Shown here one piece after another: positions 2,668-21,241 of a DNA stretch of 32,000 bases (positions are counted from its first letter, which is position 1; every line of letters starts with the position of its first letter). The notes beneath the pieces are model-generated. The model saw nothing but the letters and a program-made list of their open reading frames with translations, did not search any database and had not been told where the DNA came from. The stretch is taken from the NCBI RefSeq assembly GCF_000020025.1, contig NC_010628.1, positions 2,130,001-2,162,000 on the forward strand. The letters run 5' to 3'. The position numbers and the translations under genes were made by a program. Source of the stretch: Nostoc punctiforme PCC 73102 (lineage in GTDB: Bacteria > Cyanobacteriota > Cyanobacteriia > Cyanobacteriales > Nostocaceae).

Positions 2668-3213
2668 TTAATTCACGCCTCGCAGCTTGCGAGTATTATC
2701 AACTAAACTCTGAGCAAATTGATCGAATCTTTGAGAAAGCTTTTCATCTACTAGCTTGCCTTCAGGACTGAATGCACCCCAAGCTTGTCCGATCGCAATT
2801 TGTTCTGGAATCACCCAACCATGCACCCATCTGACAATTAGCCGTAGGTCATTTAATGCGTTACTATTTGACTGACCACCCAATACGCTGATTAGTCCTG
2901 TCACTTTATCAGACAGTTGCTCAAAGCTCATCAAATCTAGAGCATTTTTCAGGACACCACTAACCCCACCGTGATACTCAGGTGTGGCTAAAATTAATCC
3001 ATCTGACTGGCTAACAGTATCCTGTAACCGCTTAACATCTGGGTACTCTGGATACTCTTTTGCGCCAGTGCAAAACGGTAACTGCAACTGTCTTAAATCA
3101 AGAATTTCTACCTCTGCACCAAGGGCTTCTACTCTTTGCACTGCTACTTGTAAAGCAAGCTGCGTATAGGAGTTTGGTCTTAAACTACCACCAATACCAA
3201 CAATTCTCACCAT
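2668..3213 (-). CDS. NAD(P)H-dependent FMN reductase (flavodoxin-like fold)
   Basis: 181 aa. MVRIVGIGGSLRPNSYT...ILATPEYHGGVSGVLKNALD is the classic NADPH-dependent FMN reductase (SsuE/ArsH-like) pattern. Confidence 0.8.
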   Translation of the reverse strand: MVRIVGIGGSLRPNSYTQLALQVAVQRVEALGAEVEILDLRQLQLPFCTGAKEYPEYPDVKRLQDTVSQSDGLILATPEYHGGVSGVLKNALDLMSFEQLSDKVTGLISVLGGQSNSNALNDLRLIVRWVHGWVIPEQIAIGQAWGAFSPEGKLVDEKLSQRFDQFAQSLVDNTRKLRGVN

Positions 3214-5508: not shown

Positions 5509-6609
5509 CTAAGTCTCTACGGGAGCATCCCAGTTTTTATTTAGTGAGCAAAGATTAATCCATTGAGATAAGCTCTGGCGTTGAGCTAAGACTTGAGGAA
5601 CGTTATCAGATTTCCATTGTGCGCCAGAAATTTTGGTTCGACGGTCAATCTGTTTGACAGTAGACTCAATAGTACCAGAACCAATGGAACAGATTTGTTC
5701 TGCTTGATAATATTGGTAATTGACAATCCGGTGTCGATGTTTCTCAAGATAAGTACAGAAATTAAAAGCTTGTTTTAGCTGACAGTCAGCAAAGACAGCG
5801 ATAGCATCATCAACTTTTCCTTGCCAGAGAAGGATTTTAGCCTGATTGAGCCGTTGATTAGAACCGCCAATCTTGTGTAGGTTTTCCATCAGATGAAACC
5901 AATCAAGTACTTCCCGACGCTGGTGTTCGGGAGCAAAATCGCGGACAATATTCCAAATACCGTCATGGCCATCGCCAAGACAGGTCAAGATAGGAGCAAT
6001 TGATTGGCTTTTGACCCAATCAATTACAAGACTATTTTCTTGAAATGAGGCAGCAATAGCTTGTTTTTCATGTAAGCAGGTAGCTTTATAACCCTTCCAA
6101 TCACAGACTTGTCCCTTGATTGTACGAATGCGTATATTTCCTCCATCCACACTCAATTCTTCCACAGTTGATTCTACTTGCGGTAATTCAAAATTTTGAC
6201 GATGCACTAATCGTTGCTGCACACTTTTTGATACTTCTACACCAGTTAAATATTCAATATCTTCTGCCGCACGTTGATACGATACCGACGCGCTGATTCG
6301 TAAGCAACAAGCTTCTAAATATGGACTCAATTGATTATGGGGTCTAATTTCTAGCTTTTGTGCTTGAGAGTTTGTAATTGGCAGTTCTCCAATAATACTT
6401 TTTATTTTTCGTTTGTATCCGCGGCTTTCTCCTGTGGCATTTTCGATAAAAAAACCCTACTTCTGGCATTACATGCTTCCGCATTTGAGAGCGTACTACT
6501 TCTTCTATTTTTGCCAAACTTGTGAGTTGCTCACCCGTAGTACTTTTGTACAGTATCTTTGCTATTGCACGAGAATATTCTTTTATCTGTTGTTCTTCTC
6601 AGGAGTCAT
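5509..6609 (-). pseudogene. DDE transposase (ISKra4-like) split into three reading frames
   Basis: The 273-aa ORF (5509-6330) carries SVDGGNIRIRT, LGDGHDGIWN and HLMENLHK segments. Upstream, my translation gives MTPE.. (ATG at 6609), then EEQQIKEYSRAIAKILYKSTTGEQL..PEVGFF in a second frame. A T7 run (A7 on the + strand, 6448-6454) then leads to IENATGESRGYKRKIKSIIGELPITNSQAQKLEIRPHNQLSPYLE, which is in frame with the long ORF. The ORF stays open through the terminal repeat and stops in flanking DNA. Confidence 0.65.
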
Positions 6610-6737
6610 TGATACACCTAGTCTTGATGACTTTATTATCCCTTCCTGATATCCCCTTACTTCCTGACTTCCGTTTTCTGTAACAATCCTTCCCTGTTAT
6701 TTATTTGTTTTGGAATAATAAAAACTGGGATGCACCC
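5521..6737 (-). mobile_element. ISKra4-like insertion sequence (1217 bp) with terminal inverted repeats and a 9-bp target duplication
   Basis: The left end is GGGAGCATCCCAGTTTTTATT. The reverse complement of the right end is GGGTGCATCCCAGTTTTTATT (20 of 21 match). AGTCTCTAC flanks both sides (5512-5520 and 6738-6746). Confidence 0.75.
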
Positions 6738-6994
6738 AGTCTCTACAATAGTTCTAGAGAACACATAACGTAAATACGTCGTTTCAAATTTTTATTAATC
6801 ATTACTTTGATAGAAAATAGACCCACGGTGTAGGGGCAATACATGAATTGCCTCTACACCATATAATTTTGCGTAAGTCCTAAAATATTTTGGGAATCTT
6901 CTTGTGCAAAAGTAGAAGGCTACCCAATACGGTTCGGATAAGCATTTTTCACTTTTCTTGTGGTCTGGGGAAAGAGAAAGGGATAAAGGCAGGG

Positions 6995-8118
6995 CTATTT
7001 CATTCTAAAAAGCTGCTTGAGTGTGTCTAGTCCAAAAGAACATAAACGTTGAGCTTGTGCCATATTTTCAAACATATTACTGCGATATAAATTAAGTGAA
7101 AAATTGCGAGCAAGCGCAAAAATTTGAGGAAGAGGAGTAGTGCGAATTCTAGATTTATCTTCGCCTTGAGTAACGTCTCGAACATAGTGGACTTTATTCT
7201 CAACACCCCAATATCCTCTGATACGTTCAGCAAAGGCTTGCACCGTTTCGCTTAAAGATGAAATATAATAACGGGTTTCATTAGTTACTTCAATCACATT
7301 GTGTGTGAAAACCTGACGCTCTGATTTGACTTTAATCAAAGTGGTAAGTCCAGGCCAAGGACGAATACCATCGAGATTTTTACAAATACTGACATGACGC
7401 TTTTCGATTCGACCATGCCCTTTATTTATCTGCTCATAAGCCAATTCTGGCGTGAAATTTGTTTTGACATCTTTGAATAAGTTAAGCTGATTGCCTTTTA
7501 AGGCGGCAATATAATCATTCCCACTATTTATAATCAACTCACAAGTTTTTTTTGAGTATTAATAGCATCAAAAGCAAAGATAACCCCATTGAGAGCCAGT
7601 TTGGAAATCAACTCAGGTAAAGCAATAATATCATTAGTTTTGGCATCAACTTGAAATGGCTCTAAAATTAAGCCTCGCTCAACAATATAAGAACTAACTA
7701 ACATAATCGCTGGATGCGAATCCGAGTTAGGGTTATCATTTTCAATCTGATATGAACCCTTGAGGACTTTACCATCTAACCCAACAGTTTCTCCAGTATT
7801 TGGTTGTACATTAAAGAATTTGCTCAGACATACGGAATAATCTTCGTAATCTACGTGTAATAAGGCACGACGTACAGTGCCATAAGATGGTAGTCTATTT
7901 TTTGGCGGTTGAAAAAGTTCAATCCGCGGCTCACGGTAGCTTGAAATCCAGTCTCCAATTGCTAAAAATCCTTTGTTCCCTGCTGCGATGCCTACGGCGG
8001 GCTGCGCCTACGCCAATGTGAAAAGTGCCAAAGATAATGGTAGATTATGTCTCTGTCCGGCGCGGCGACGGGGGTCTTTTAGACCTGCAAAAGCTTTGAT
8101 AATTTCGATTTCAGACAC
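6995..8118 (-). pseudogene. ISAs1-family (H-repeat-type) transposase, inactivated
   Basis: From the GTG at 8118: VSEIEIIKAFAGLKDPRRRAGQRHNLPLSLALFTLA*AQPAVGIAAGNKGFLAIGDWI...DAINTQKK. A frameshift in a homopolymer (T8 on the + strand, 7546-7553) leads into IINSGNDYIAALKGNQ...GHGRIEKR...IRGYWGVENKVHYVRDVTQGEDKSRIRT. The in-frame TAG sits inside an inserted short dispersed repeat. Confidence 0.8.
7982..8013 (-). repeat. 32-nt short dispersed repeat inserted into the ISAs1 transposase gene, supplying a TAG stop
   Basis: The minus strand reads gcgtaggcgcagcccgccgtaggcatcgcagc, a 30 of 32 match to ftsH 3610-3641 in the same reading frame (A*AQPAVGIAA versus [11 protein letters not shown]). Confidence 0.75.
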
Positions 8119-8375: not shown

Positions 8376-9290
8376 ATGAAACATAGATTTTGGGCAAGCT
8401 ATTTGCTTGCAGCTTTAGCATTTCTTCCCTTAGAATCTGCGATTACTACACAGGTTTTGGCAACAGAGTCAGTTTTGCAACTGGCACAAGCCAAATCTGC
8501 TTACACGCAATATATGCAACTCGGCTATAACGAAACTAGACGGAGAAACTACCGAAAAGCTTTAGGATATTTTCAGCAAGCAGAGCGATCGCGTCCTGGA
8601 GATAGGTATGCTACTGCTGCAATTAGAAATGTAACAAGTTACATCCAACGCGGTAGAAATCGTATTGCCTTCGTCCCAGGTAGACCTGGTAGGGTAAGGT
8701 CAGCAGGAACACGAGGAAGTTGCTTTCAAACTGGACAAAATATTATTCCCCTGACACCGACAGATAAGGAAGCTCAACGAACCACAGCAGAGCGTCCCAC
8801 ATTATTCTTCTATGTTCCTCAAACCTCTACAACAGTACAAGCACTAGAATTTGTTTTGCGGGATGATGATAGCTCCGACCCATTGTATAAGGGAACTTTC
8901 AAACCTGTTGGACAGAATGGTATTGTTAGTGTAAATGTACCTGCTAATCAGCCATCTCTACAAATCGGTAAAGAGTATAGTTGGACTTTTTCAATGATTT
9001 GTGATACTAACAACCGCGATAAAGACTCTTATGTAGAAGGTACAATAGTGCGATCGCAAGATGAAAACCTCTCTCTTCAGCTAAACCAACCAAACACAGA
9101 CTTGGATCGTGCAGTTCTATTTGCAACTGCTGGATTTTGGGAAGATTCTCTCAGAACTTTAGCTAATTTACGCCGCCAGCGTCCTAACGATCCTGAAGTT
9201 CAGAAATATTGGGAAGATTTGTTGAATTCAGTAGAGATTAAAGAAGTTGTAAACAAGCCTTTATTGCCCTGTTGTACTGTTCAAAAATAA
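8376..9290 (+). CDS. secreted DUF928-family protein
   Basis: The preferred start is the ATG at 8376 (MKHRFWASYLLAALAFLPLESA, a signal peptide); the ORF track begins at 8328. The PGRPGRVRSAGTRGSC segment, then TLFFYVPQTS..ALEFVLRDD and KEYSWTFSMICD, match my memory of the cyanobacterial DUF928 pattern. Confidence 0.65.
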   Translation: MKHRFWASYLLAALAFLPLESAITTQVLATESVLQLAQAKSAYTQYMQLGYNETRRRNYRKALGYFQQAERSRPGDRYATAAIRNVTSYIQRGRNRIAFVPGRPGRVRSAGTRGSCFQTGQNIIPLTPTDKEAQRTTAERPTLFFYVPQTSTTVQALEFVLRDDDSSDPLYKGTFKPVGQNGIVSVNVPANQPSLQIGKEYSWTFSMICDTNNRDKDSYVEGTIVRSQDENLSLQLNQPNTDLDRAVLFATAGFWEDSLRTLANLRRQRPNDPEVQKYWEDLLNSVEIKEVVNKPLLPCCTVQK

Positions 9291-9304
9291 ATTAAAAATT
9301 ACTT

Positions 9305-9339
9305 AAAAACCCGGTTTTGATAGAGAAGCCGGGTTTTTA
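9305..9339 (+). terminator. rho-independent terminator after the DUF928 gene
   Basis: AAAAACCCGG (9305-9314) pairs with CCGGGTTTTT (9329-9338), followed by a T-run, 15 nt after the stop codon. Confidence 0.65.
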
Positions 9340-9492
9340 TCATTCATAGGAATTATGTAAAACTACACGCGCTCAGGTAGGGGCAATTCGTGTATACGCA
9401 AACGCGAGAGCATCTCTAAGAGTTGCGGCTTCCCGTAGGGTATTACCCAATACGCTTGGGTTAATGGCTACTTGTACAAAATCGTGGGTTTT

Positions 9493-9518
9493 GAGACGTG
9501 ATAAATCGCCGTCTCTAC
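9493..9518. repeat. copy of the GACG(C/T)GATAAATCGCCGTCTCTAC dispersed repeat
   Basis: gagacgtgataaatcgccgtctctac. It lies inside a repeat-rich stretch that also holds a GTAGGGGCAATTCGTG-type element (about 9376-9400). Confidence 0.75.
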
Positions 9519-10174
9519 AAGATTTTATGTTACGAAAACGACACCCATTTTTAAGTGTACTGCGATCGCGTACCCGCCCGCCGGAGGCGATGGTCTCCGA
9601 CCGACCGGAGGTCATCGCAAACGAGACAGTTAATCTGAGATAGCGAACAATTAGTTTGCAATACTTAATATTAGATTATCTAATAATTAGTTTTTCATGA
9701 TATTGTGTTTGTCAGTACATATTTTTTTGTATGCATCGTGTAAACTCTATTTGCGGAGTAAGATTGCTACATAAATTTATGGTAATTCGAGCGCCAAGCA
9801 GCAGCAACCCTAGTTTTGCTGTGGTATTAACCTGACTTACAGTTTGGTTATTTCATTCCATATAGAGCAACTGAAGTCTACATTTTAGTTGTTTTGAAAG
9901 CATTCCATTATTACATTCAGTGTGGAGTTAGCAGTAAATGCTAGCCCAAAGCTTTGTATGGAAAGGATTTTATCAATCTGCCATCTGAGTATTTTTTGAT
10001 TGGATGTCAGCAGTTGAAAGCAAACATATTGTTGTCTACTCATCAGACACTTGCCACGTAGTTATAAGGATTTTACAAACAGTTAGGAATTAGCTAGCGA
10101 TCGCACACTGACGTTAGATGAAAAGCCATTAGCTATACGCAAATCAGCAATCACTATAGAAAAGAAAAAAGCTT

Positions 10175-11539
10175 ATGAGTACAACACGCAAGTTTCGTTT
10201 AGGTGCATTCGTTCAAGCCACCGGTCATCATGTCTCCTCTTGGCGACACCCCGATGCACAAGCAGATGCTGGATTGAATTTCGAGCATTACAAGGAAATT
10301 ACCCAGACTGCCGAACGCGGCTTGTTTGATGCAGTTTTTCTAGCAGATAGCCCAGGAGTCTGGGGTGGCTCTCCAGAAACTCAGTATCGCAACGGTAAAA
10401 TGGCCCATTTCGAGCCAGTCACTCTCTTCTCGGCCTTGTCCTCTGTTACCAAAAATATCGGCTTCATTTCCACCGCCTCGACTACTTATGAAGAACCCTA
10501 CACCTTGGCGCGGAAGTTTGCCTCGTTGGACTACTTGAGTAACGGCCGGGCAGGGTGGAATGTAGTCACCACAGGCAATGAGAACGCCGCTCGTAATTTC
10601 GGGCTTGAGCATCACCCGGAACATAGCCAGCGTTATGAACGCGCCGAAGAGTTTGTGGAAGTAGTGAAAGGACTGTGGGATAGCTGGGAAGATGATGCTT
10701 TTATCCGTGACAAAGAATCTGGTGTGTATTTCGACCCAGATAAACTGCATACACTCAACCATAAAGGCAAATATTTTTCTGTCCAAGGCCCTTTAAACGT
10801 CGGTCGTCCGCCTCAAGGCTACCCCGTGATTGTTCAGGCTGGAGCTTCGGAATCTGGCCGGGACTTAGCTGCACGCACCGCCGAAGTGATTTTCACCGCT
10901 AATCAAACCCTAGCTGATGCCCAAGAATTTTATGCTGATGTGAAAGGGAGATTAGCACAATATGGGCGATCGCCAGACGATCTAAAAATTATGCCCGGTG
11001 CTTTCCCAATCATTGGCCGTACCGAAGCAGAAGCTCAAGAGAAATACGAATTCCTGCAATCGCTGATTCATCCTGATGTCGCCTGGGGAATTTTAAAGAA
11101 CTATTACAAAGGTGTGGATCTGTCGAAATATTCTCTAGATGATGTGGCTCCTGAACTGCCCAGCGACACCAACACTAACAAGAGTCGTCTCAAACTAGTC
11201 AGAGATTTAGCGACTCGTGGCACTCTCACATTACGTCAGTTGTATCTCTCTCTTGCCACCGCACGAGGACATCGCACCATCCTTGGTACACCCGAAACCA
11301 TTGCCGATCAGTTAGAAGAATGGTTCAACAATGGTGCGGCAGACGCCTTTAATATCATGCCGCCAATTCTCCCCACAGAATTAGATGAATTCGTTAACTT
11401 AGTCGTTCCCATCTTGCAAAAACGTGGATTGTTCCGTACCGAATATGAGGGTAGTACCTTACGTGAAAACCTGGGATTGCGTCGTCCGGTCAATCGTTTT
11501 GCTGCAAAACAAGTAGACAAGAGCCTCGTGTTGGCGTAA
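10175..11539 (+). CDS. LLM-class flavin-dependent monooxygenase, NtaA/SnaA/DszA(SoxA) subfamily, copy 1
   Basis: 454 aa. The start (FRLGAFVQATGHHVSSWRHP...FDAVFLADS) and the overall length are characteristic of the about 450-aa NTA-monooxygenase/DszA group. There is an A-rich leader with AAGCTTATG. Confidence 0.9.
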   Translation: MSTTRKFRLGAFVQATGHHVSSWRHPDAQADAGLNFEHYKEITQTAERGLFDAVFLADSPGVWGGSPETQYRNGKMAHFEPVTLFSALSSVTKNIGFISTASTTYEEPYTLARKFASLDYLSNGRAGWNVVTTGNENAARNFGLEHHPEHSQRYERAEEFVEVVKGLWDSWEDDAFIRDKESGVYFDPDKLHTLNHKGKYFSVQGPLNVGRPPQGYPVIVQAGASESGRDLAARTAEVIFTANQTLADAQEFYADVKGRLAQYGRSPDDLKIMPGAFPIIGRTEAEAQEKYEFLQSLIHPDVAWGILKNYYKGVDLSKYSLDDVAPELPSDTNTNKSRLKLVRDLATRGTLTLRQLYLSLATARGHRTILGTPETIADQLEEWFNNGAADAFNIMPPILPTELDEFVNLVVPILQKRGLFRTEYEGSTLRENLGLRRPVNRFAAKQVDKSLVLA

Positions 11540-11653
11540 ATGACTTTTAATATCTGCACTGTGCTTAAGCAGACACGAAAAGTCATTAGCTATACACAAA
11601 TCAGCAATACCAAAGGTAAAGCTACCGCTAACGCAATATAAGAAAAAAAGCTT

Positions 11654-13021
11654 ATGACTACAACACGCAAACTTCGTTTAGGTGCATTCATTCAAGCTAC
11701 AGGTCATCACATATCAGCTTGGCGGCATCCCGATTCACAAGCAGATGCTGGACTAAATTTCGAGCATTACAAAGAAATTACCCAAACTGCCGAACGCGGC
11801 TTGTTCGATGCGGTTTTCCTTGCCGATAGCCCCAGTTTACAAGACAATAGTGAACCGGAGGTGCTGAAGCGCAACGGTAAATTAGCAAAGTTTGAGCCAG
11901 TGACGCTATTTTCCGCACTAGCACCATTAACCAAGCATATTGGCTTTGTTGCTACCGCTTCCACCACTTATGAAGAACCTTATACCCTTGCTCGGAAGTT
12001 TGCCTCATTGGACTACTTGAGTAACGGCCGGGCGGCGTGGAATGTAGTCACCACAGGTAATGAGAATGCCGCCGGTAATTTCGGGCTTGAGCATCACCCG
12101 GAACATAGCCAGCGTTATGAACGCGCCGAAGAGTTTGTAGAAGTAGTAAAAGGCTTGTGGGATAGCTGGGAAGATGATGCTTTCATCCGCGACAAAGAAT
12201 CTGGTGTCTATTTCGATCCAGATAAACTGCACACACTCAACTACAAAGGCAAACATTTTTCTGTCCAAGGCCCTTTAAACGTCGGTCGTCCGCCTCAAGG
12301 TTATCCAGTGATTGTGCAAGCTGGTGCTTCCGAAGTCGGCAGGGATCTGGCGGCACAGACTGCTGAAGTTATTTTTACTGCCAACCAAACCCTGGAAGAC
12401 GGGCAAGAATTTTATGCCGATGTGAAAGGACGATTGGCTAAATATGGTCGCCAACTAGACGATTTGAAAATCATGCCAGGTGTGTTCCCAGTGATTGGAC
12501 GCACTGAAGAAGAAGCCCAAGAAAAATACGAATTCCTGCAATCGTTAATTCACCCATCGGTGGCATGGGGATTACTCAAAACACGTTATAAAGGCATCGA
12601 TTTATCTGGCTATTCACTCGACGATCTTGCACCACCATTGCCCAGTGATACTAACGGTGGTAAGAGCCGCCTCAAGTTATTGACGGATCTTGTAAATCGC
12701 GGCAACTTAACGCTGCGTCAGTTGTATCTCTCTGTCGCTACCGCGCGGGGTCATCGCACCATAATTGGTAGTCCTGAAAGTATTGCTGACCAGTTAGAAG
12801 AATGGTTCAGCAATGGTGCGGCAGATGGTTTTAATATCATGCCGCCAATTCTCCCCACAGGGTTAGATGACTTCGTTAATCTAGTTATCCCAGTCTTGCA
12901 AAAACGTGGATTGTTCCGTACTGAATATGAGGGCAATACCTTGCGTGAAAACCTCGGATTGCGTCGTCCAGGTAATGGTTTTGCAGCAAAACAAGCAAAC
13001 AAGAGCCTCGTGGTAGTGTAA
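11654..13021 (+). CDS. LLM-class flavin-dependent monooxygenase, NtaA/SnaA/DszA(SoxA) subfamily, copy 2 (tandem paralogue)
   Basis: 455 aa, collinear with copy 1 at an offset of 1479 bp. It is roughly 85 percent identical by eye, including one run of 55 identical residues (NFGLEHHPEHSQRYERAEEF...DPDKLHTLN). Confidence 0.9.
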   Translation: MTTTRKLRLGAFIQATGHHISAWRHPDSQADAGLNFEHYKEITQTAERGLFDAVFLADSPSLQDNSEPEVLKRNGKLAKFEPVTLFSALAPLTKHIGFVATASTTYEEPYTLARKFASLDYLSNGRAAWNVVTTGNENAAGNFGLEHHPEHSQRYERAEEFVEVVKGLWDSWEDDAFIRDKESGVYFDPDKLHTLNYKGKHFSVQGPLNVGRPPQGYPVIVQAGASEVGRDLAAQTAEVIFTANQTLEDGQEFYADVKGRLAKYGRQLDDLKIMPGVFPVIGRTEEEAQEKYEFLQSLIHPSVAWGLLKTRYKGIDLSGYSLDDLAPPLPSDTNGGKSRLKLLTDLVNRGNLTLRQLYLSVATARGHRTIIGSPESIADQLEEWFSNGAADGFNIMPPILPTGLDDFVNLVIPVLQKRGLFRTEYEGNTLRENLGLRRPGNGFAAKQANKSLVVV

Positions 13022-13118
13022 ATAAATTTTTCACAGATGCTTATGCCATACCTTTTAAACTGCACCTTCTGTAGATCGCCGCCTACAGAATTTGAAAATT
13101 GTAGAGAGGGACGGGATT

Positions 13119-13149
13119 GTAGAGAGACGCGATAAATCGCCGTCTCTAC
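13119..13149. repeat. hairpin copy of the GACGCGATAAATCGCCGTCTCTAC repeat between monooxygenase 2 and the amidohydrolase gene
   Basis: gtagagagacgcgataaatcgccgtctctac is a near-palindrome. It could act as an intra-operon stem-loop. Confidence 0.75.
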
Positions 13150-13226
13150 AAGAAATGTATTTATCAATAGCAGCATCGGATACTGAAAAAAACCTGTAAT
13201 TTTTGTGCCGTAGGCAAGGAAAAAAC

Positions 13227-14765
13227 ATGACTGAATATAGCCGATTAAAGACCTCACGCTCCGCCGCAATCAGAGCAACCCTTGATTATCCGGTAATCGA
13301 TACCGATGTTCATACCAATGATTTCACACCGGCGTTTGAGGATTATATTGCTAAATACGGCGGTGTGAAACTCGTAGATGAGTTACGTAAAACCGAAGCT
13401 TCCCGTCTCAACTCCAAAAGCAATGGTAAAGACTGGTATCAACAAACCCCTGAAGAACGTCAATATAACCGGACAATCCGATCGCCTTGGTGGGCAAGAG
13501 TTACCAAAAATACGCTGGACCTCGCTACTTACACCCTCCCCGGATTGCTCTATGAGCGTCAGGCAGAGCAAGGATCAGACTATTCGGTGCTGTTTCTGAA
13601 TAATGTCCTAGCACCGGCTGGAGCAAGTGCAGAGAATCGTCAAGCACTGCAACGCGCGGTTAATCATTATCATGCTGATATCTACCGTAAATATAGCGAT
13701 CGCCTGACACCGGTAGCTGGTATTCCCTTAACTACTCCCCAAGAAGGCATTGAGGAGCTAGAATTTGCAGTAAAAACACTCGGTTTAAAAGTGATTAATA
13801 TCACTGGCGGGGTGAAACGGCCAATTAAAGCGATCGCTGATAAATATCCAGCCGATAAATTCCCCGAAATCGCCAAGTATGCCTCTTATATCGACTTCTA
13901 CGGACTAGATAGTGAATACGACTACGATCCCTTCTGGGCAAAGGTCGTGGAACTTGGTGTACCTGTCACCACCCATTACGGTAGCCAAGGTTGGACTGGA
14001 CGCTCCTCCATTAGTAACTACATGAACAACCATATCGGTCACTTCGCCGATGGTTCGGAAGCATTTGCGAAGGCTTTGTTCTTCGGTGGCGTTACCAAGC
14101 GTTTTCCACAGTTGCGTGTAGCGATGCTCGAAGGTGGTGCAGATTGGGGTGCCCGCGTCTACATTCATTTGGTAGATCGTTTCTCCAAGCGCAATATCAA
14201 GGCATTGGAAAATTACAATCCAGCATTGACAAATGCTGATGAGCTATTTGAAATATTTGAACGCTATGGTGCAGAAGTTACTCAAGGGCATTCCCTCGAT
14301 AAAGACGAATTGACCAAGACTGTACTGGGAGCTTCATTTAGCCGTCATAGCCGTGCGCCAATTGGTAGCGAATTGGACGATTTTGCAGCAGCAGGTATTG
14401 AAACAATTGAAGACATCCGCGATCGCTGGGTGAATAGTTTCTTCTTTGGTTCCGAGTCTGACGATCGCACCATTGCTACGGCATTCAACGACAAAGCCAA
14501 TCCCTTGGGAGTCAAAATCAACGCCATCTATTCCTCTGATGTTGGTCATTGGGATGTACCAGACTTGACTTCCCCCTTGGCTGAAAGCTGGGATTTGGTT
14601 CAAGAAGGCGTTATTTCCGAAGCCGACTTTAAGTCCTATGTATTCGCTAATCCCTACAAGTTTTACACCCAAGCTAACCCCGAATTTTTCAAGGGTACTG
14701 CGATCGAATCCAAGGTAGGTAACACCGAATTTAAACAAGTGGACAAGAGCCTGGTGGTGGCGTAA
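13227..14765 (+). CDS. amidohydrolase-fold (amidohydrolase-2/ACMSD-like) metal-dependent hydrolase or decarboxylase
   Basis: The preferred start is the ATG at 13227 (MTEYSRLK), preceded by AGGCAAGGAAAAAAC. The track start at 13203 is a TTG that adds a Cys to an otherwise Cys-free protein. The early VIDTDVHT metal-binding motif, then later HYGSQGW, and the 512-aa length fit the family. Confidence 0.75.
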   Translation: MTEYSRLKTSRSAAIRATLDYPVIDTDVHTNDFTPAFEDYIAKYGGVKLVDELRKTEASRLNSKSNGKDWYQQTPEERQYNRTIRSPWWARVTKNTLDLATYTLPGLLYERQAEQGSDYSVLFLNNVLAPAGASAENRQALQRAVNHYHADIYRKYSDRLTPVAGIPLTTPQEGIEELEFAVKTLGLKVINITGGVKRPIKAIADKYPADKFPEIAKYASYIDFYGLDSEYDYDPFWAKVVELGVPVTTHYGSQGWTGRSSISNYMNNHIGHFADGSEAFAKALFFGGVTKRFPQLRVAMLEGGADWGARVYIHLVDRFSKRNIKALENYNPALTNADELFEIFERYGAEVTQGHSLDKDELTKTVLGASFSRHSRAPIGSELDDFAAAGIETIEDIRDRWVNSFFFGSESDDRTIATAFNDKANPLGVKINAIYSSDVGHWDVPDLTSPLAESWDLVQEGVISEADFKSYVFANPYKFYTQANPEFFKGTAIESKVGNTEFKQVDKSLVVA

Positions 14766-14941
14766 AAGCCGAGATGAGGGCGTGGGGGGGAGATGAAAAA
14801 AAATCAATCCCCCATGCCCTGAGCGTAAAGCCTACGGCATAGCTTCGCTTAACGCGCAGCGTCTCCGTTAGGAGAAGCCGTTCGCGTAGCGTCTCGCAGA
14901 GAAGGGATGCCCAAAGCCCAAATAAATTAGGAGTCACAACC

Positions 14942-15610
14942 ATGTCCGTAGAACAACGCTCTTACGAAACCAATAATGGTTCTTTGCCTTATCTTTTCTC
15001 GCCTGTTTCTGACAATGCCAAGCAACCTGCACCCTTAGTACTATTTCTGCATGGAGGACGCGATCGCGGGACGGATCTGAATGTGCTACTGAAATGGGGT
15101 CTACCTCGTTTCGTAGATTTATCCGACTCATTACCTTATGTCTTCGCCGCACCCCAGATTCCGGCTGAACAAACTTGGGCAGATCGAGCAGATGACGTGC
15201 TCGCTTTGCTTGATGAACTGATTGCTTCCCAGCCCGTCGATCCAGCACGGGTGATATTAGCCGGGTTCAGCTTAGGCTCGGCCGGGATCTGGCATGTCGC
15301 TGCTTTACATCCCAATCGCTTCGCCGGTCTAGTACCTGTATCTGGACGTGTACCCAAGACACTTGGAGAAAGCGAACTAGCTGCACTCAAAGATATTCCC
15401 GTTCAGATATTTCAAGGTGGACAAGACAAAAATCTGCCAATAGAGGATACAGAGAATTTTGTTGAGCGCTTACGCAAAGTCGGCGGGAAAGTCGATTTGA
15501 CAGTGCTGCCAGAAGGCGATCATTTTATTGCAGATGAAGTATACAGCGATCCGAAGTTGCAACAGTGGCTAGTTTCCCTGAGCCGTCGCAACACTGCTTT
15601 AGTTGTCTGA
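14942..15610 (+). CDS. alpha/beta hydrolase, carboxylesterase/phospholipase-type
   Basis: 222 aa. LVLFLHGG, the nucleophile elbow GFSLGSAG, and later QGGQDKNLP and GDHF give a Ser-Asp-His arrangement. Confidence 0.75.
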   Translation: MSVEQRSYETNNGSLPYLFSPVSDNAKQPAPLVLFLHGGRDRGTDLNVLLKWGLPRFVDLSDSLPYVFAAPQIPAEQTWADRADDVLALLDELIASQPVDPARVILAGFSLGSAGIWHVAALHPNRFAGLVPVSGRVPKTLGESELAALKDIPVQIFQGGQDKNLPIEDTENFVERLRKVGGKVDLTVLPEGDHFIADEVYSDPKLQQWLVSLSRRNTALVV

Positions 15611-15823
15611 GGCACAAAACCCCAAAAGTCAGCGCTCAGGAACTGGGGGCTGAGATACAAAAGAAGATTTTTCTCAATCCCCATGACCGACAAAGAAAAG
15701 GATACAAGCCCCTAAATTTATTTATGGTTACTGAGCGTAGCCGTAAAGCCTGCGGCATAGCTACGCTTAGGGCGCAGCCTCTCGTAGAGAAGTATGGGAA
15801 TTATTAATTTTAAATTTTGAATT

Positions 15824-16843
15824 TTGAATTCGGAGCGAAGCGACGTGACCTTACCAACCACCAATCTTGGAAAAACTGGATTAACTTTTTCCCGCCTTTG
15901 TCTCGGCACCATGACCTTTGGATTGCAGACTGACGAAGAAACTTCTAGGGACATTCTCGACACCGCCGCCGATGGCGGAATCAACTTTTTAGATACAGCC
16001 GATGTTTATCCACTTGGCGGTGGGCTTGCTACTGCTGGGCGTACCGAAGAAATTGTTGGGCGCTGGCTCAAAGGTAAACGCAAACATTTTATCTTAGCTA
16101 CCAAGTGCGTCGGCCGGGTTGGCCCTGCACCTTGGGATCAGGGTGCTTCGCGCAAACATATTCTAGATGCGATCGATGCTTCTCTACGACGTTTGGGAAC
16201 CGACTATATCGACCTGTACCAATTGCACTCCGACGATACTTCCACCCCCCTCGATGAAACCCTGGAAGCGCTGGACGCGGTAGTTCGTGCTGGCAAAGTA
16301 CGCTATATCGGGGTTTCCAACTTCTTAGCCTACCGACTTGCCCGCGCCTTGGGTCGCGCCGAGACACGCAATCTAACCAGGTTCGTCTCAATTCAGCCCC
16401 GCTACAACCTGTTGTTCCGCGAAATTGAGCGAGAACTATTGCCCCTAGCTAAAGAAGAAGGACTGGGTGTAATTTCCTACAATCCCTTGGCGGGTGGTCT
16501 GCTCACCGGGAAACACATTCTCGCTCAAGGCCCCACCTCCGGTACACGTTTTACGCTAGGTGCTGCCGCAGAACGTTATCAAGAACGCTACTGGCATGAT
16601 CGCGAGTTCGATACTGTAGAGGAATTACGCACAGTCGCGGATCTCGCCGGATTGTCGCTCACAACCCTAGCGGTAGCTTGGGTTTTATCTAATCCTATTA
16701 TCACTGCCCCCATCATCGGCGCTAGTCGCCCACAACAACTTGCTGACAACTTCAAGGCAGTGGAAGTCAAACTCGACGACAGTTTGAAACAAAAGTTAGA
16801 TGACTTAACCGCCGAATACCGAAGGGGAGATTCTCTTCGTTAG
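15824..16843 (+). CDS. aldo/keto reductase
   Basis: 339 aa. LGKTGLTFSRLCLGTMTFG, INFLDTADVY, DYIDLYQLH, GKVRYIGVSNF and IIGASRPQQL are AKR signatures. The start is uncertain: a TTG at 15824 lying in a heptamer repeat, or a GTG at 15845. Confidence 0.85.
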   Translation: MNSERSDVTLPTTNLGKTGLTFSRLCLGTMTFGLQTDEETSRDILDTAADGGINFLDTADVYPLGGGLATAGRTEEIVGRWLKGKRKHFILATKCVGRVGPAPWDQGASRKHILDAIDASLRRLGTDYIDLYQLHSDDTSTPLDETLEALDAVVRAGKVRYIGVSNFLAYRLARALGRAETRNLTRFVSIQPRYNLLFREIERELLPLAKEEGLGVISYNPLAGGLLTGKHILAQGPTSGTRFTLGAAAERYQERYWHDREFDTVEELRTVADLAGLSLTTLAVAWVLSNPIITAPIIGASRPQQLADNFKAVEVKLDDSLKQKLDDLTAEYRRGDSLR

Positions 16844-17062
16844 TTTCAAGTCAGAGGCAGGGGGAACTGCACTCATTCCACTGCCGTGGAATGAAGGGGG
16901 CAACATGGATCTGACTGCGATCGCATAAGGAAGTCAGCTACAACCAAACAGCAAAAGTTTTTAAAGAGTGCTGCCAGAAGTCCCTAATACCGCCGGACGG
17001 CTTATATAGTCGTCCATTTTTATCTTGCAGAACAGCCAAAATGTGCTAGTGGATCGACTTTC

Positions 17063-18943
17063 ATGACGAAAAAGACCAGACAATTCAAATCCTTTCAACG
17101 TGCTGCTGATGCACCAAACCTGCCATCAACTCCATTCAGGTTCATTTTGTATTTCGTTAACCAGTTTCGCCAGTGGTATGTGTTAATGGTGATTCTGGAG
17201 ATGGTACACGCAACCTGTGGCATTATGTTGCCTTATGCCATTGGTGAGATCATCCGGGGTGTAACGAAATCAACGGGCGGCAGCCAGCCCATTTTTGATG
17301 CCATGAGGCAACCCCTGATGCTGTTTATCGCGTTGAGTGTGGGTGAAGTGATATTCGGGCGTTCGGCTGGACTCTTGCAAACTATCCTCCATCCAGTCCA
17401 CCGACAGCATATTGTGCGATCGCTATATGCCTACTTGCAACACCATTCGCATCGCTACATGAGTAGCAGTTTTTCTGGGGCATTGGCACATCGAATTAGC
17501 GAAACTTCTCTGGGTGTTACTCAGACGATGCAAATGCTAATTACTGAATTTATGCCAGTAATTGTTGTGTATACCGTCGCTACGACGATACTGTATCGCT
17601 CCTATCCTCCCCTGGCTGCACTCGTTGGCGTGTGGGCAGTTCTCTTCATCAGTATTTCGTTCTGGCTAGCAACTCGCTGCCGAATTTACTCCCGGAAAGC
17701 CGCAGCCGCCAGAAGTGAGACAACTGGCATCATCGTAGATACAGTAACAAATCTCACCAGTAGCCGACTGTTTGCTCGTTTGGGTTTTGAACGAGGCTAT
17801 TTGAATGAGCAATTAAGCCGCGAACTCAAACAGGTGAGAAAATCCAACTGGTACTCGGAGCGAATTCGCTGGTTTCAGTTTATCTCGGCAGCCATTCTAA
17901 AAATCAGCACCCTGTATTACTCACTTTCCCTTTGGAGTCAAGGGAAGATCGCTACTGCTGATTTCGTTGTCGCAACTAGCTTATCGTTATTAATAATCAG
18001 TGAAGCCCGGAATTTGAGCCGCCGCTTTCTGGAATTTTTTGAACATATCGGCAATGTCGCCAATGGTGTCTTTACCATCGTTCAACCCCACGAGTTGGTC
18101 GATCGCGATCGCGCGATCGCACACCCAATTACCCAAGGTAAGATTGAGTTTCGCCGAGTGAATTTCAATTACTCTGATGAAAAGAAAGTTTTCAACAACC
18201 TTTCTGTCACCATCCAAGCCGGACAGCGTGTCGGACTGGTGGGCTTCTCTGGTTCTGGAAAATCCAGCTTTGTCAATCTAATTCTGCGTTTGTTCGACCC
18301 CCAATCTGGACAGATTATTATTGATGGGGTCGATATTCGAGACATGACTCAGGATGCCCTACACGCACAGATCAGCTTGATTCCCCAAGATCCGTCTCTG
18401 TTCCATCGCACTTTGCTAGAAAATATTCGTTACGGACGCTTGGATGCAACCGATGAGGAAGTGTTCGAGGCGGCGCGAAAGGCTAATGCTCACGATTTCA
18501 TTATTCAAAGTCAGGATGGTTACAATTCTCTGGTGGGCGAACGTGGTGTCAAGTTATCTGGAGGGCAGAGACAACGCATTGCGATCGCTCGGGTAATCCT
18601 CAAAGATGCGCCGATTCTGATTTTGGATGAAGCCACCTCTAGCCTCGATTCAATCACCGAAAAAGCGATCCAAGATACCCTCGACTTAGCCATGAATGGG
18701 AAAACAGTCATTGTGGTGGCTCATCGACTATCTACCATTGTCCATCTAGACCGGATTTTGGTGTTTGACAAAGGTCACATTATCGAAGATGGTTCCCACA
18801 CCAAACTGCTGGCACTCGGCGGCGCTTACCACAGGTTATGGAAAATGCAGGCGGGTGGATTTATCCCAGAAAATCCCGGCGAGGAACGCATACATGAGGT
18901 TCGCACTCGCACAGATAACGTCCAAAAGGGAATGATCGCTTGA
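17063..18943 (+). CDS. ABC transporter, fused permease/ATPase (MsbA-like exporter, no peptidase domain)
   Basis: 626 aa. A six-helix N-terminal half, then Walker A GFSGSGKSS, signature LSGGQRQR, Walker B ILILDEATS and an H-loop VAHRLST. Confidence 0.9.
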   Translation: MTKKTRQFKSFQRAADAPNLPSTPFRFILYFVNQFRQWYVLMVILEMVHATCGIMLPYAIGEIIRGVTKSTGGSQPIFDAMRQPLMLFIALSVGEVIFGRSAGLLQTILHPVHRQHIVRSLYAYLQHHSHRYMSSSFSGALAHRISETSLGVTQTMQMLITEFMPVIVVYTVATTILYRSYPPLAALVGVWAVLFISISFWLATRCRIYSRKAAAARSETTGIIVDTVTNLTSSRLFARLGFERGYLNEQLSRELKQVRKSNWYSERIRWFQFISAAILKISTLYYSLSLWSQGKIATADFVVATSLSLLIISEARNLSRRFLEFFEHIGNVANGVFTIVQPHELVDRDRAIAHPITQGKIEFRRVNFNYSDEKKVFNNLSVTIQAGQRVGLVGFSGSGKSSFVNLILRLFDPQSGQIIIDGVDIRDMTQDALHAQISLIPQDPSLFHRTLLENIRYGRLDATDEEVFEAARKANAHDFIIQSQDGYNSLVGERGVKLSGGQRQRIAIARVILKDAPILILDEATSSLDSITEKAIQDTLDLAMNGKTVIVVAHRLSTIVHLDRILVFDKGHIIEDGSHTKLLALGGAYHRLWKMQAGGFIPENPGEERIHEVRTRTDNVQKGMIA

Positions 18944-19970: not shown

Positions 19971-21241
19971 CTGAAGGGGGGACAAGCACCCGAAAGCCTT
20001 TGTGCTGTATTAAGTTGAGCGAATTATGGTAAAAAAAGATAGGTCAGTATTGTCAATAAGACCTATCTGTTGAAAATGTTACCTGAATTATACCAGAAGC
20101 ATCTACAAAGTTTACTTTCACAGTCCGAATTAATATTTCTGACGCTGGTGATTAACGTAGTACAAAATATCAAAGATGTGAAACTAGAGAAAATATCAGA
20201 GTCGCGACCATTATTCATTCAATGCCAGTCGAGACGGAAGAAGTTACAAAGGTTTCTATCATTACCAATATTGTTGAATATAGAAGAATTATGGTTTCCC
20301 ATAATTGAACGATGGTTAGCTCAAACTTTCCTCGGAAATCACCGAATCTATTTAGCAATTGATAGGACGAATTGGAAAAGAAAAAATCTACTAATGATTA
20401 GTGTAATTTTTCAAAAAAGAGCTATACCGATATACTTTAAGCTTTTAGCAAAATTAGGTAGTAGTAACTTATCAGAACAAACTAAGGCATTATCAAAGAT
20501 AATTCCCTTATTTAAAAACTATAAAACGGTAGTGTTAGGAGATAGAGAGTTTTGTTCAGTGAGCTTGGCGGAATGGCTTGATGAACAAGGGTTTGAGTTT
20601 TGTTTGAGACTCAAGAAAAATGAGAATATTGAGTTGAAAGCTCATTTATGGTGCGAAATAAAAGATTTAGGTTTAAAACCAGGAACATCTTTTTTTGTAT
20701 CAGATGCAACGGTAACAAAAACTAAACAAGTGAAGGGATTTAATGTGGCTTGCAAATGGAAAAAGAATTACCGTCAAAACAAAGCCAAAGAAGGATGGTT
20801 TATTTTAACTAACATGAATAGTAAAATAACGGCGATTCAGGCATATCAAAAGCGCTTTGATATAGAAGAGATGTTTAGAGATTTTAAAAGTGGCGGTTAC
20901 AATTTAGAGAAGACAAATGTGGAAGGTAAGCGGTTTATTGCTTTAGTTTTAATCATCTCATTAGCTGACACTATTGCTACATTACAAGGTCAGAATATTA
21001 AGAGTAAAGGAATTGCAAAATATCTGGCACGTCCCAAAGAATATGGACGTTCTCACAGAAGGCATAGTAACTTTTATATCGGTCTTTATGCACAGAACTG
21101 GGTTAATTTCATTGGTGATTGTTGGAGTTTAGTTCAAGATTTAATGCGATTAAGTCGTCATAAACTAGAGAATTATTTACAAGGGATGAGAGCTATGAAG
21201 CTTATACAGTCAGCTTTATAGGCTTCATGTCGCCCCTTCAG
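19971..21241 (+). mobile_element. IS4-family insertion sequence (1271 bp), apparently intact
   Basis: Ends CTGAAGGGGGGACA and, for the reverse complement of the right end, CTGAAGGGGCGACA. There is a 9-bp direct repeat AGCCAATGC at 19962-19970 and 21242-21250, and a single uninterrupted transposase ORF. Confidence 0.85.
20070..21221 (+). CDS. IS4-family DDE transposase
   Basis: 383 aa. LAIDRTNW and VLGDREF supply the first two acidic residues. YQKRFDIEEMFRDFK fits the IS4 Y-2-R-3-E-6-K signature. The start is a TTG at 20070 or an ATG at 20076. Confidence 0.85.
   Translation: MKMLPELYQKHLQSLLSQSELIFLTLVINVVQNIKDVKLEKISESRPLFIQCQSRRKKLQRFLSLPILLNIEELWFPIIERWLAQTFLGNHRIYLAIDRTNWKRKNLLMISVIFQKRAIPIYFKLLAKLGSSNLSEQTKALSKIIPLFKNYKTVVLGDREFCSVSLAEWLDEQGFEFCLRLKKNENIELKAHLWCEIKDLGLKPGTSFFVSDATVTKTKQVKGFNVACKWKKNYRQNKAKEGWFILTNMNSKITAIQAYQKRFDIEEMFRDFKSGGYNLEKTNVEGKRFIALVLIISLADTIATLQGQNIKSKGIAKYLARPKEYGRSHRRHSNFYIGLYAQNWVNFIGDCWSLVQDLMRLSRHKLENYLQGMRAMKLIQSAL

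Follow-up and report, generated by a model that had tools for sequence, protein, structure and literature searches.

Genes of the cluster and their sulfur content

We analysed a 32,000-nucleotide stretch of the genome of the cyanobacterium Nostoc punctiforme PCC 73102 (assembly GCF_000020025.1, contig NC_010628.1, positions 2,130,001 to 2,162,000; hereafter the window, numbered from its first letter), in which five consecutive genes encode two monooxygenases dependent on reduced flavin mononucleotide (FMNH2), a protein of the PF04909 ('amidohydrolase 2') family, an esterase and an aldo-keto reductase. A preliminary description of the sequence had counted no cysteine and very little methionine in the first four proteins, and had proposed that the genes scavenge organic sulfur. 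The cluster genes, and the window genes used for comparison, are as follows (lengths in amino acids, aa).

10175-11539, forward strand: monooxygenase 1, 454 aa, 0 Cys, 3 internal Met
11654-13021, forward strand: monooxygenase 2, 455 aa, 0 Cys, 2 internal Met
13227-14765, forward strand: PF04909 protein, from the ATG at 13227, 512 aa, 0 Cys, 2 internal Met
14942-15610, forward strand: esterase, 222 aa, 0 Cys, 0 internal Met
15824-16843, forward strand: aldo-keto reductase, from a TTG start, 339 aa, 2 Cys, 1 internal Met
17063-18943, forward strand: exporter-type ABC protein, 626 aa, 2 Cys, 13 internal Met
21905-24076: topoisomerase, 723 aa, 15 Cys, 9 internal Met
2668-3213, reverse strand: NAD(P)H:FMN reductase, 181 aa, 1 Cys, 1 internal Met

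All of the earlier Cys and Met counts were reproduced when the open reading frames (ORFs) were translated, and ATG 13227 proved to be the correct start of the PF04909 gene, since orthologues are 512 aa long and begin MTEYSRLK. Together, the four proteins encoded at 10175-15610 total 1639 residues, among which there are 7 internal Met and not one Cys. For background we used 16 further full-length ORFs from the window, together 5866 residues long, in which Cys makes up 1.13% and internal Met 1.57%. On that basis, the binomial probability of finding no Cys in the four proteins is 9e-9 and that of finding at most 7 Cys+Met is 3e-12; P is 3e-9 when the two monooxygenases, which are 85% identical, enter once. 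Protein by protein, Cys+Met amounts to 0.0-0.66% in the four cluster proteins versus 1.1-3.7% in the 16 background ORFs, among which the FMN reductase is the lowest (1.10%) and all others have at least 1.98%. The sulfur depletion is thus real and much stronger than chance would produce. It is also specific to sulfur: none of the remaining amino acids shows a comparable skew, and side-chain nitrogen in the cluster proteins is normal, which rules out nitrogen-sparing as the cause of the composition. That proteins induced by sulfate starvation are low in Cys and Met is an established principle.

Conservation of the depletion in relatives

A similar depletion was found in homologues of the cluster proteins. 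Cys was absent from 115 of 120 monooxygenase homologues (67-92% identity; from cyanobacteria, Rhizobium, Devosia, Chitinolyticbacter and others) and from 117 of 120 PF04909 orthologues (70-99% identity), nearly all of the latter having 1-3 Met; sulfur-free PF04909 orthologues occur in cyanobacteria, Bordetella, Variovorax, Achromobacter, Caldimonas and Sorangium. Neither Cys nor Met was present in 105 of 120 esterase homologues, and 69 orthologues of the aldo-keto reductase averaged 0.81% Cys+Met. When 58 gene families that recur in the neighbourhood of the cluster in Nostocales were ranked by Cys+Met, the lowest six were an SDR, TauD-like, FMO-like, esterase, monooxygenase and PF04909 families, with the aldo-keto reductase 11th and the FMN reductase 16th.

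As a paralogue control for the PF04909 protein, we searched 50%-identity cluster representatives exhaustively and retained 83 full-length members of the same ~490-aa family. These contain on average 5.8 Cys and 11.3 Met (3.5% Cys+Met), and all 82 representatives at 31-46% identity have normal sulfur. The sole sulfur-free representative (P0241, 56% identity) adjoins the gene of a 457-aa monooxygenase. Alignment positions that are Cys in 93%, 68% and 64% of the paralogues are occupied in the orthologues by Ser409, Gln/His142 and Val240, respectively, and one that is Met in 65% of the paralogues by Leu168. The substitution pattern is a signature of selection against sulfur, and not a structural property of the fold, and the depletion is an inherited trait of the orthologous clades that did not arise in this organism.

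The economy falls mainly on the soluble enzymes and less on membrane components, and in Proteobacteria it extends to the binding protein: those of Bordetella and Variovorax have no Cys and 0-1 Met, versus 2.4-4.6% Cys+Met in unrelated neighbours, and the other soluble members of these operons are also sulfur-free. This bias towards soluble proteins fits the expectation that abundant proteins get purged.

Neighbourhoods in other genomes

Gene order is conserved in 80 loci of Nostocales and comprises one or two monooxygenase genes, the PF04909 gene, the esterase, the reductase and an exporter-type ABC gene. Optional insertions, often sulfur-free, include methyltransferases, an SGNH hydrolase, an FMO-like flavoprotein (0 Cys, ~480-506 aa) and a TauD-like dioxygenase (0 Cys, 0 Met). 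Some loci also contain an NMT1/SsuA-like binding protein, which is not depleted. In the closest relative, Nostoc sp. LEGE 12447 (locus L011, 13713-14825), and in many other loci, the gene of this lipoprotein lies between the reductase and ABC genes; the protein of such loci has 370 aa, 2 Cys and 11 Met, unlike the binding proteins of Bordetella and Variovorax. We found no remnant of binding-protein, methyltransferase, FMO-like, TauD-like or SGNH genes in the window, including the interval 16843-17063 after the reductase gene. The cluster of the window is a minimal form without importer.

The flanks of other Nostocales loci carry an arylsulfatase, a second TauD-like gene and an SfnB/DszC-like protein of the acyl-CoA-dehydrogenase family with no sulfur amino acids. 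In a locus of the Trichormus variabilis type, the five genes keep their order, with 81-, 21- and 53-bp gaps from the PF04909 gene on, and are accompanied by SsuB/C-like genes and an OprB porin. A Pseudanabaena plasmid combines a monooxygenase (84% identity) and a PF04909 gene (83%) with FMN reductase, nitroreductase, SsuC, ABC ATPase, TauE/SafE, aldo-keto reductase and GST genes. In Bordetella hinzii and Variovorax, an operon consists of the PF04909 gene, an SsuA-like binding protein, two permeases, an ATPase and the monooxygenase, with an FMN reductase gene next to it in Variovorax, and on a plasmid of Rhizobium leguminosarum a monooxygenase of 71% identity follows an Ssu-like importer. The cluster is an inherited module, the monooxygenase/PF04909 core of which is also present in Betaproteobacteria together with an SsuABC-like importer.

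Two further loci are of note. On plasmid1 of Scytonema sp. HK-05 (L063), the cluster is expanded between the PF04909 and esterase genes (11980-16783) by a TauD-like dioxygenase (322 aa, 0 Cys/Met), an MFS transporter, a methyltransferase (0 Cys) and an FMO-like flavoprotein (479 aa, 0 Cys, 1 Met). A 4-kb contig (CAZZZY010000643.1) from a metagenome-assembled genome labelled 'uncultured Acetobacteraceae' carries a monooxygenase and a PF04909 gene 97-98% identical to those of Nostoc, plus the conserved upstream block described below, and is most likely a mis-binned Nostoc contig.

The monooxygenases

Both monooxygenases are full-length FMNH2-dependent luciferase-like proteins of the NtaA/DmoA family (TIGR03860, 619 and 609 bits with a cutoff of 279.7). 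Their closest solved relatives are Bacillus subtilis YtnJ/MoxC (1e-124), an NtaA-family protein and DszA (3e-106). SsuD was rejected as an identity (TIGR03565, 65-71 bits with a cutoff of 518), and an exact-protein lookup for monooxygenase 1 found no record. Monooxygenase 2 is a tandem paralogue of monooxygenase 1. Some 12 of the 80 related loci retain both copies, each as a lineage of its own, which suggests an old duplication with diverged specificity. The tandem arrangement was seen only in some Nostoc strains (loci L011, L016, L021, L025, L029, L032-L035, L049 and L061), where each copy is 91-98% identical to its counterpart in the window and the copies differ most around residues 61-75.

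The PF04909 protein

The product of 13227-14765 matches PF04909 in Pfam (1e-10) and is 99% identical to proteins of many Nostoc genomes, several of them from lichen symbionts. The preliminary description had called it an amidohydrolase. We built an AlphaFold2 model on 90 diverse sequences (predicted local distance difference test, pLDDT, 93.4), for which the top Foldseek matches were SfbO, AibH1H2 (AibH2), TruffO, PtmU3 and DitZ, with probability 1.00 for SfbO, AibH, PtmU3 and DitZ. Proteins of the SfbO, AibH2, PtmU3 and DitZ type have recently been described under the name of AROs, for amidohydrolase-related dinuclear oxygenases (PMC13154177, PMC10811679). They are defined by a D-x-H motif on strand 1 and a C-terminal D-x-P-H-x-D/E loop, a ligand pattern that, according to PMC13154177, no characterised PF04909 hydrolase or decarboxylase has. 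SfbO is able to bind sulfate as well as sulfonates, and its hydroxylation of 2-aminoethylsulfonates sets free sulfoacetaldehyde (PMC10811679).

Nearly the same set of residues is present in the window protein and its family, where D27-x-H29, H250, E302-G-G and D438-x-G-H441-x-D443 are each 98-100% conserved among the 90 diverse members. D27-V-H29 lies inside a predicted strand (24-30), with D27 kept in 88 of 90 members and H29 in all 90; in the C-terminal loop, D438-V-G-H441-W-D443, the D, H and D are 99-100% conserved. In a profile search PtmU3 came first (2e-17), the hidden Markov model aligning the C-terminal loop to S-D-Y-P-H-L-E of PtmU3. H250 aligns to a His of PtmU3, DitZ, TruffO and AibH2, and E302 (in L-E-G-G) to a Glu of the same AROs, PtmU3 and DitZ among them, where ACMSD has a His. 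A search with just the central fragment of the protein gave AROs as four of its top five solved matches; the N-terminal fragment alone gave nothing useful in the PDB. Since the protein carries the ligand set of the dinuclear oxygenases, it is probably not a hydrolase.

Three observations weigh against an oxygenase. Mononuclear decarboxylases are interleaved with the AROs in the Foldseek list and score about equally; the Pro of the ARO motif is replaced in the family by Gly (76), Ser (11) or Ala (3) in the 90 members; and no Rieske ferredoxin or other dedicated reductase lies near the PF04909 gene in the window or in loci L001, L003, L004, L086 and L099. It is therefore possible, if doubtful, that the protein is a mononuclear or metal-free enzyme, an alternative that leaves the rest of the sulfur-scavenging reading standing. 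It could be a decarboxylase-like desulfinase that frees sulfite from a DszA-type sulfinate, as a functional analogue of DszB, or a lactonase or hydrolase such as 4-sulfomuconolactone hydrolase. Besides their fold-search scores close to those of the AROs, 2,3-dihydroxybenzoate, salicylate and gamma-resorcylate decarboxylases came second in the profile search, and the strict D-x-P-H-x-D/E motif is not what the protein has. Yet all seven potential ligands (the strand-1 D-x-H, the Glu of E-G-G and D-x-G-H-x-D) are at least 98% conserved, in a pattern that the characterised hydrolases and decarboxylases lack, Glu302 stands in place of the ACMSD His, and the central fragment on its own recovers mostly AROs. 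On balance we lean towards an ARO-like protein, judging from the model and the conserved residues, without filing it as an ARO member under the published motif.

Because the loop lacks the Pro, the published motif filter would miss this entire ~500-aa family. The window protein is ~150 residues longer than the AROs, which are ~350 aa and have the motif Pro where the family has Gly, Ser or Ala; AROs and the family share the PF04909 TIM barrel, the strand-1 D-x-H, the mid-sequence His and Glu and the C-terminal D-x-x-H-x-D loop, and the family differs further in having no Rieske ferredoxin nearby. The dinuclear oxygenase superfamily, this suggests, is larger than the published motif captures, and one of its branches may be tied to sulfur metabolism, with a non-Rieske source of electrons. 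A more detailed proposal, which we consider speculative and rather unlikely as a whole, is that the ~500-aa D-x-[G/S/A]-H-x-D family is an unrecognised dinuclear-oxygenase branch whose sulfur-free clade dispenses with an iron-sulfur partner and takes electrons from the free FMNH2 with which the FMN reductase already supplies the neighbouring monooxygenases. Hardly any protein-bound sulfur would then be needed for a complete C-S cleavage pathway, whose substrates would be substituted sulfonates, for example sulfobetaines, N-substituted taurines or head groups released from the organism's own sulfolipid.

The wider PF04909 search returned 2363 representatives at 50% identity with E <= 0.001, and 324 with E <= 1e-30. 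In the ~490-aa family (P0241-P0390), D-x-D-x-H, H, E-G-G and D-x-[G/S/A]-H-x-D are invariant. The genomic contexts of three sulfur-normal paralogues were varied (Rieske/P450/SDR; FAD and methyltransferase; GlnA and TauD) and gave no functional lead. In three Nostoc genomes (L062, L070 and L077, ~6060-7550), two additional genes lie immediately upstream of that of the monooxygenase: a further PF04909 paralogue (51-52% identity; in L062 with 3 Cys and 3 Met) and a sulfur-free ORF of methyltransferase size (in L062, 270 aa, 0 Cys, 2 Met).

Esterase, reductases and ABC protein

The esterase is an alpha/beta-fold carboxylesterase of the Abhydrolase_2/DLH (dienelactone-hydrolase) type by Pfam, with LC-Est1C and 3doh as best solved relatives. 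A homologue search found its family only in cyanobacteria, and the gene is syntenic in ~60 of the 80 loci. The aldo-keto reductase (PF00248, 7e-76) is NAD(P)H-dependent and is closest, among solved proteins, to generic aryl-alcohol-dehydrogenase-like enzymes; its orthologues are called at 332 aa, compared with 339 aa from the TTG, and in locus L099 its gene starts 21 bp past the esterase gene. The ABC protein, which fuses ABC_membrane and ABC_tran domains (Pfam), is of exporter type and not sulfur-depleted, and its gene lies downstream of the cluster in ~70 of the 80 loci.

The NAD(P)H:FMN reductase (PF03358, 3e-40) had been put forward as a possible flavin donor. This is plausible, because the protein is itself sulfur-poor, occupies the same position in 10 close relatives, and has counterparts that adjoin the cluster in Variovorax and on the Pseudanabaena plasmid.

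Upstream block and transcription unit

An 880-bp gap separates the first cluster gene from the upstream DUF928 gene, whose terminator lies at 9304-9339. The following non-coding features were found around the cluster.

9642-9870: conserved AT-rich non-coding block, presumed promoter/operator, 72-95% identity in most of the 80 Nostocales loci
9657-9697: 41-bp imperfect palindrome, candidate regulator binding site, arms 9657-9676 and 9678-9697 80% complementary
16995-17015, forward strand: terminator-like hairpin with a T-run (8-bp stem, 5 G-C pairs, tail ATTTTTAT), by pattern match only

Between the conserved block and the start codon, the sequence diverges among the Nostocales loci. Inside the 41-bp palindrome is a perfect 15-bp palindrome, ATTAGATTATCTAAT, at 9670-9684, its only exact match in the window, and four ATTAG/CTAAT half-sites (9650, 9670, 9680 and 9686) fall within 40 bp, the densest occurrence in the window, where 0.12 would be expected per 60 bp. 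The exact palindrome is restricted to close relatives, more distant loci having TATTCGATAAACTAATA, and in 1.57 Mb of related loci it occurs essentially only upstream of the first cluster gene, degenerate in the distant loci. It had been suggested to look for a site of a sulfur-responsive regulator in 9620-10174; that interval does contain a conserved block with a candidate palindrome, but no regulon could be defined from the palindrome search of the window and related loci, and no regulator can be named. We presume, from its conservation, that the block is the promoter/operator. Other readings of the region were rejected. No consensus structure supporting a riboswitch or small RNA was obtained with RNAalifold from 58-64 orthologous blocks on both strands, Rfam detected no RNA family (gathering threshold for the whole window; E <= 1 for 9290-10200), and a leader peptide at 9698 (a 25-codon ORF containing Cys) has a stop at codon 4 in the consensus of related loci. 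The 30-nt sequence at 9493-9522 looks like a short dispersed repeat, as other Nostoc loci have a copy of it (97% identity) between their monooxygenase and PF04909 genes.

The hairpin at 16995-17015 likely marks the 3′ end of the transcription unit, and no comparable site was found in the gaps between the five cluster genes. A single transcript for the five genes is plausible.

A probable sulfur-scavenging cluster

We consider it probable that the cluster serves in sulfur starvation, when its products would scavenge sulfur oxidatively from some organosulfur compound. The enzymes, which are soluble and presumably abundant, would have been purged of Cys and Met to keep the sulfur cost of making them close to nil. 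The comparison bears out the original proposal in that the purge is kept across phyla and absent from PF04909 paralogues, and in that relatives join the same genes to SsuABC-like importers, FMN reductases and TauD-like, sulfatase, SfnB-like and TauE genes; this linkage to sulfur genes and the conserved purge together support a role in sulfur acquisition. Under sulfur scarcity, a regulator acting at the AT-rich block (9642-9870) would switch the genes on, and an NAD(P)H:FMN reductase, for which the product of 2668-3213 is a candidate, would provide FMNH2. With FMNH2 and O2, the two NtaA/DszA/YtnJ-type monooxygenases would oxygenate their substrate at or next to sulfur and cleave the C-S bond to give sulfite or sulfinate and a carbonyl product, a reaction that we take from characterised members of the family to which the two proteins have been assigned. 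The PF04909 protein, given its ligand pattern and fold, would be an O2-activating two-metal (Fe/Fe or Mn/Fe) oxygenase of ARO type, and might carry out a second C-H hydroxylation or a dealkylation that exposes or converts a sulfonated moiety, as SfbO does with 2-aminoethylsulfonates. The esterase may take an acyl or ester group off the substrate, and the aldo-keto reductase may reduce the aldehyde product.

Several features of the locus weigh against this reading. The window has no Ssu-type importer, TauD, sulfite-handling gene or adjacent regulator; the gaps between the five genes are 114-213 bp; the FMN reductase gene is 7 kb away on the opposite strand; and the syntenic exporter-type ABC protein does not fit an uptake pathway. 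Moreover, seven of eight sampled distant NtaA/DmoA members, from plasmids, are also sulfur-poor (0.2-1.8% Cys+Met), so that the depletion of the monooxygenases is less clade-specific than that of the PF04909 protein. Many of these distant members stand in sulfur-related contexts, for example with SfnB genes. YtnJ has no Cys and 4 Met in 427 aligned residues.

The sulfur-poor distant NtaA/DmoA members also lend themselves to a different explanation, in which low sulfur has no link to sulfur limitation but was carried along as phylogenetic baggage when the genes were acquired horizontally, or is a general family trait, and the pathway is a general xenobiotic or nitrogen-scavenging one. Indeed, G+C is 46-50% in the cluster region (10001-18000) and 36-43% in adjacent sequence, and the monooxygenase and PF04909 proteins of cyanobacteria share 70-77% identity with their proteobacterial orthologues; both values point to horizontal acquisition of the module. 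We regard this explanation as very unlikely nevertheless: the PF04909 paralogues have normal sulfur, the unrelated esterase, aldo-keto reductase, FMO-like and TauD-like families and the Bordetella binding protein are depleted as well, the nitrogen content is normal, and the neighbours are specific to sulfur (SsuC, TauE, TauD, sulfatase and SfnB-like genes).

The cluster could, alternatively, be a minimal biosynthetic one, in which oxygenases, an esterase, a reductase and sometimes a methyltransferase and an FMO tailor a small metabolite for release by the ABC exporter, rather than a catabolic one. The synteny of the exporter-type gene in ~70 of 80 loci and the methyltransferase, FMO-like and SGNH genes inserted in some of them are what such a cluster would show, and AROs are frequent in biosynthetic clusters (PMC13154177). 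Against this, no locus contains a core biosynthetic enzyme, the proteobacterial versions carry an importer and not an exporter, and the sulfur purge would be left to explain, which makes a biosynthetic role very unlikely. Least likely is that Cys and Met, the most oxidation-prone residues, were removed to shield flavin and metal oxygenases leaking reactive oxygen species from self-oxidation instead of to save sulfur, for although three of the five proteins are probable oxygenases, the PF04909 paralogues with the same ligand set keep 3.5% Cys+Met, and the esterase, the reductase and the periplasmic binding proteins of Bordetella and Variovorax are equally depleted without being oxygenases.

Comparison with known systems

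The preliminary description drew a parallel with the ytmI and yxeK operons of B. subtilis, which carry out FMNH2-dependent C-S cleavage for sulfur salvage. YtnJ (CmoJ) of the ytmI operon is the nearest solved relative of the window monooxygenases and is itself Cys-free. The parallel does not extend to the amidohydrolases: those of Bacillus are M20 deacylases that work alongside a GNAT acetyltransferase, whereas the window protein belongs to PF04909. The Bacillus-type arrangement of a monooxygenase, GNAT acetyltransferase, M20 deacylase and amino-acid ABC importer was seen in a Pantoea locus (L089); the window has no M20 deacylase, GNAT acetyltransferase or amino-acid ABC importer, and has the PF04909 protein, esterase and aldo-keto reductase instead.

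With the proteobacterial ssuEADCB, msuEDC, sfnG and tauABCD systems, the cluster shares the logic of two-component flavin monooxygenases and, in related loci, the SsuABC-like importer and FMN reductase. It differs in that its monooxygenases are of the NtaA/DmoA type (~455 aa) and not SsuD, and we know of no PF04909 partner in the ssu, msu or tau systems. The Dsz (4S) pathway provides a clear homologue in DszA and follows the same scheme of flavin reductase and monooxygenase, with another enzyme to complete the release of sulfur; however, the window has no DszB or DszC homologue, and an SfnB/DszC-like gene is present only in some related loci. In the sulfo-SMO pathway of Agrobacterium (SmoA/B/C), a flavin reductase and a luciferase-like sulfonate monooxygenase act together with an aldo-keto reductase that reduces the carbonyl product. 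By analogy, this resemblance offers a lead, but SmoC is SsuD-like and not NtaA-like, the window cluster has no sulfoquinovosidase, and no chain labelled SmoB was found among the 45 best solved relatives of the aldo-keto reductase.

Sulfur-sparing itself is not new in starvation-induced proteins. Mazel and Marliere, in 1989, reportedly described a phycobiliprotein set of Calothrix, made under sulfur limitation, from which Cys and Met have been purged, and element-sparing in assimilatory enzymes is said to have been reported by Baudouin-Cornu et al. in 2001. The Calothrix set consists of alternative isoforms within one organism, whereas the purge described here extends to an entire catabolic module and has been kept across phyla. 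In the searchable full-text literature we found no description of the cluster. What appears to be new is that a sulfur-free pair of proteins, an NtaA-type monooxygenase and a PF04909 protein, has been conserved across phyla, together with signs that place the latter in an unrecognised D-x-[GSA]-H-x-D branch related to the dinuclear oxygenases.

Used as a predictor of function, element-sparing singles out this conserved and uncharacterised core, which occurs in cyanobacteria, Betaproteobacteria and myxobacteria and is probably, on comparative grounds, a sulfur-acquisition route for some class of organosulfur compounds. Among the Nostoc strains that bear it, many are lichen or plant symbionts, a setting in which sulfur supply may be limiting. 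The cluster is also present in genomes of the Trichormus variabilis type, a genetically tractable lineage, so the hypothesis is directly testable.

Other features of the window

Beyond the cluster, an IS4-type DDE transposase gene lies at 20070-21221 (forward strand), and two ORFs on the reverse strand, 5509-6330 and 6995-7537, have no Pfam match; this suggests mobile-element activity on both sides of the cluster. The gene at 1505-2623, tail-to-tail with that of the FMN reductase, encodes a protein of ferrochelatase fold (PF00762, 3e-40, with a weak CbiX match) that scores 84 bits, compared with a hemH cutoff of 125.

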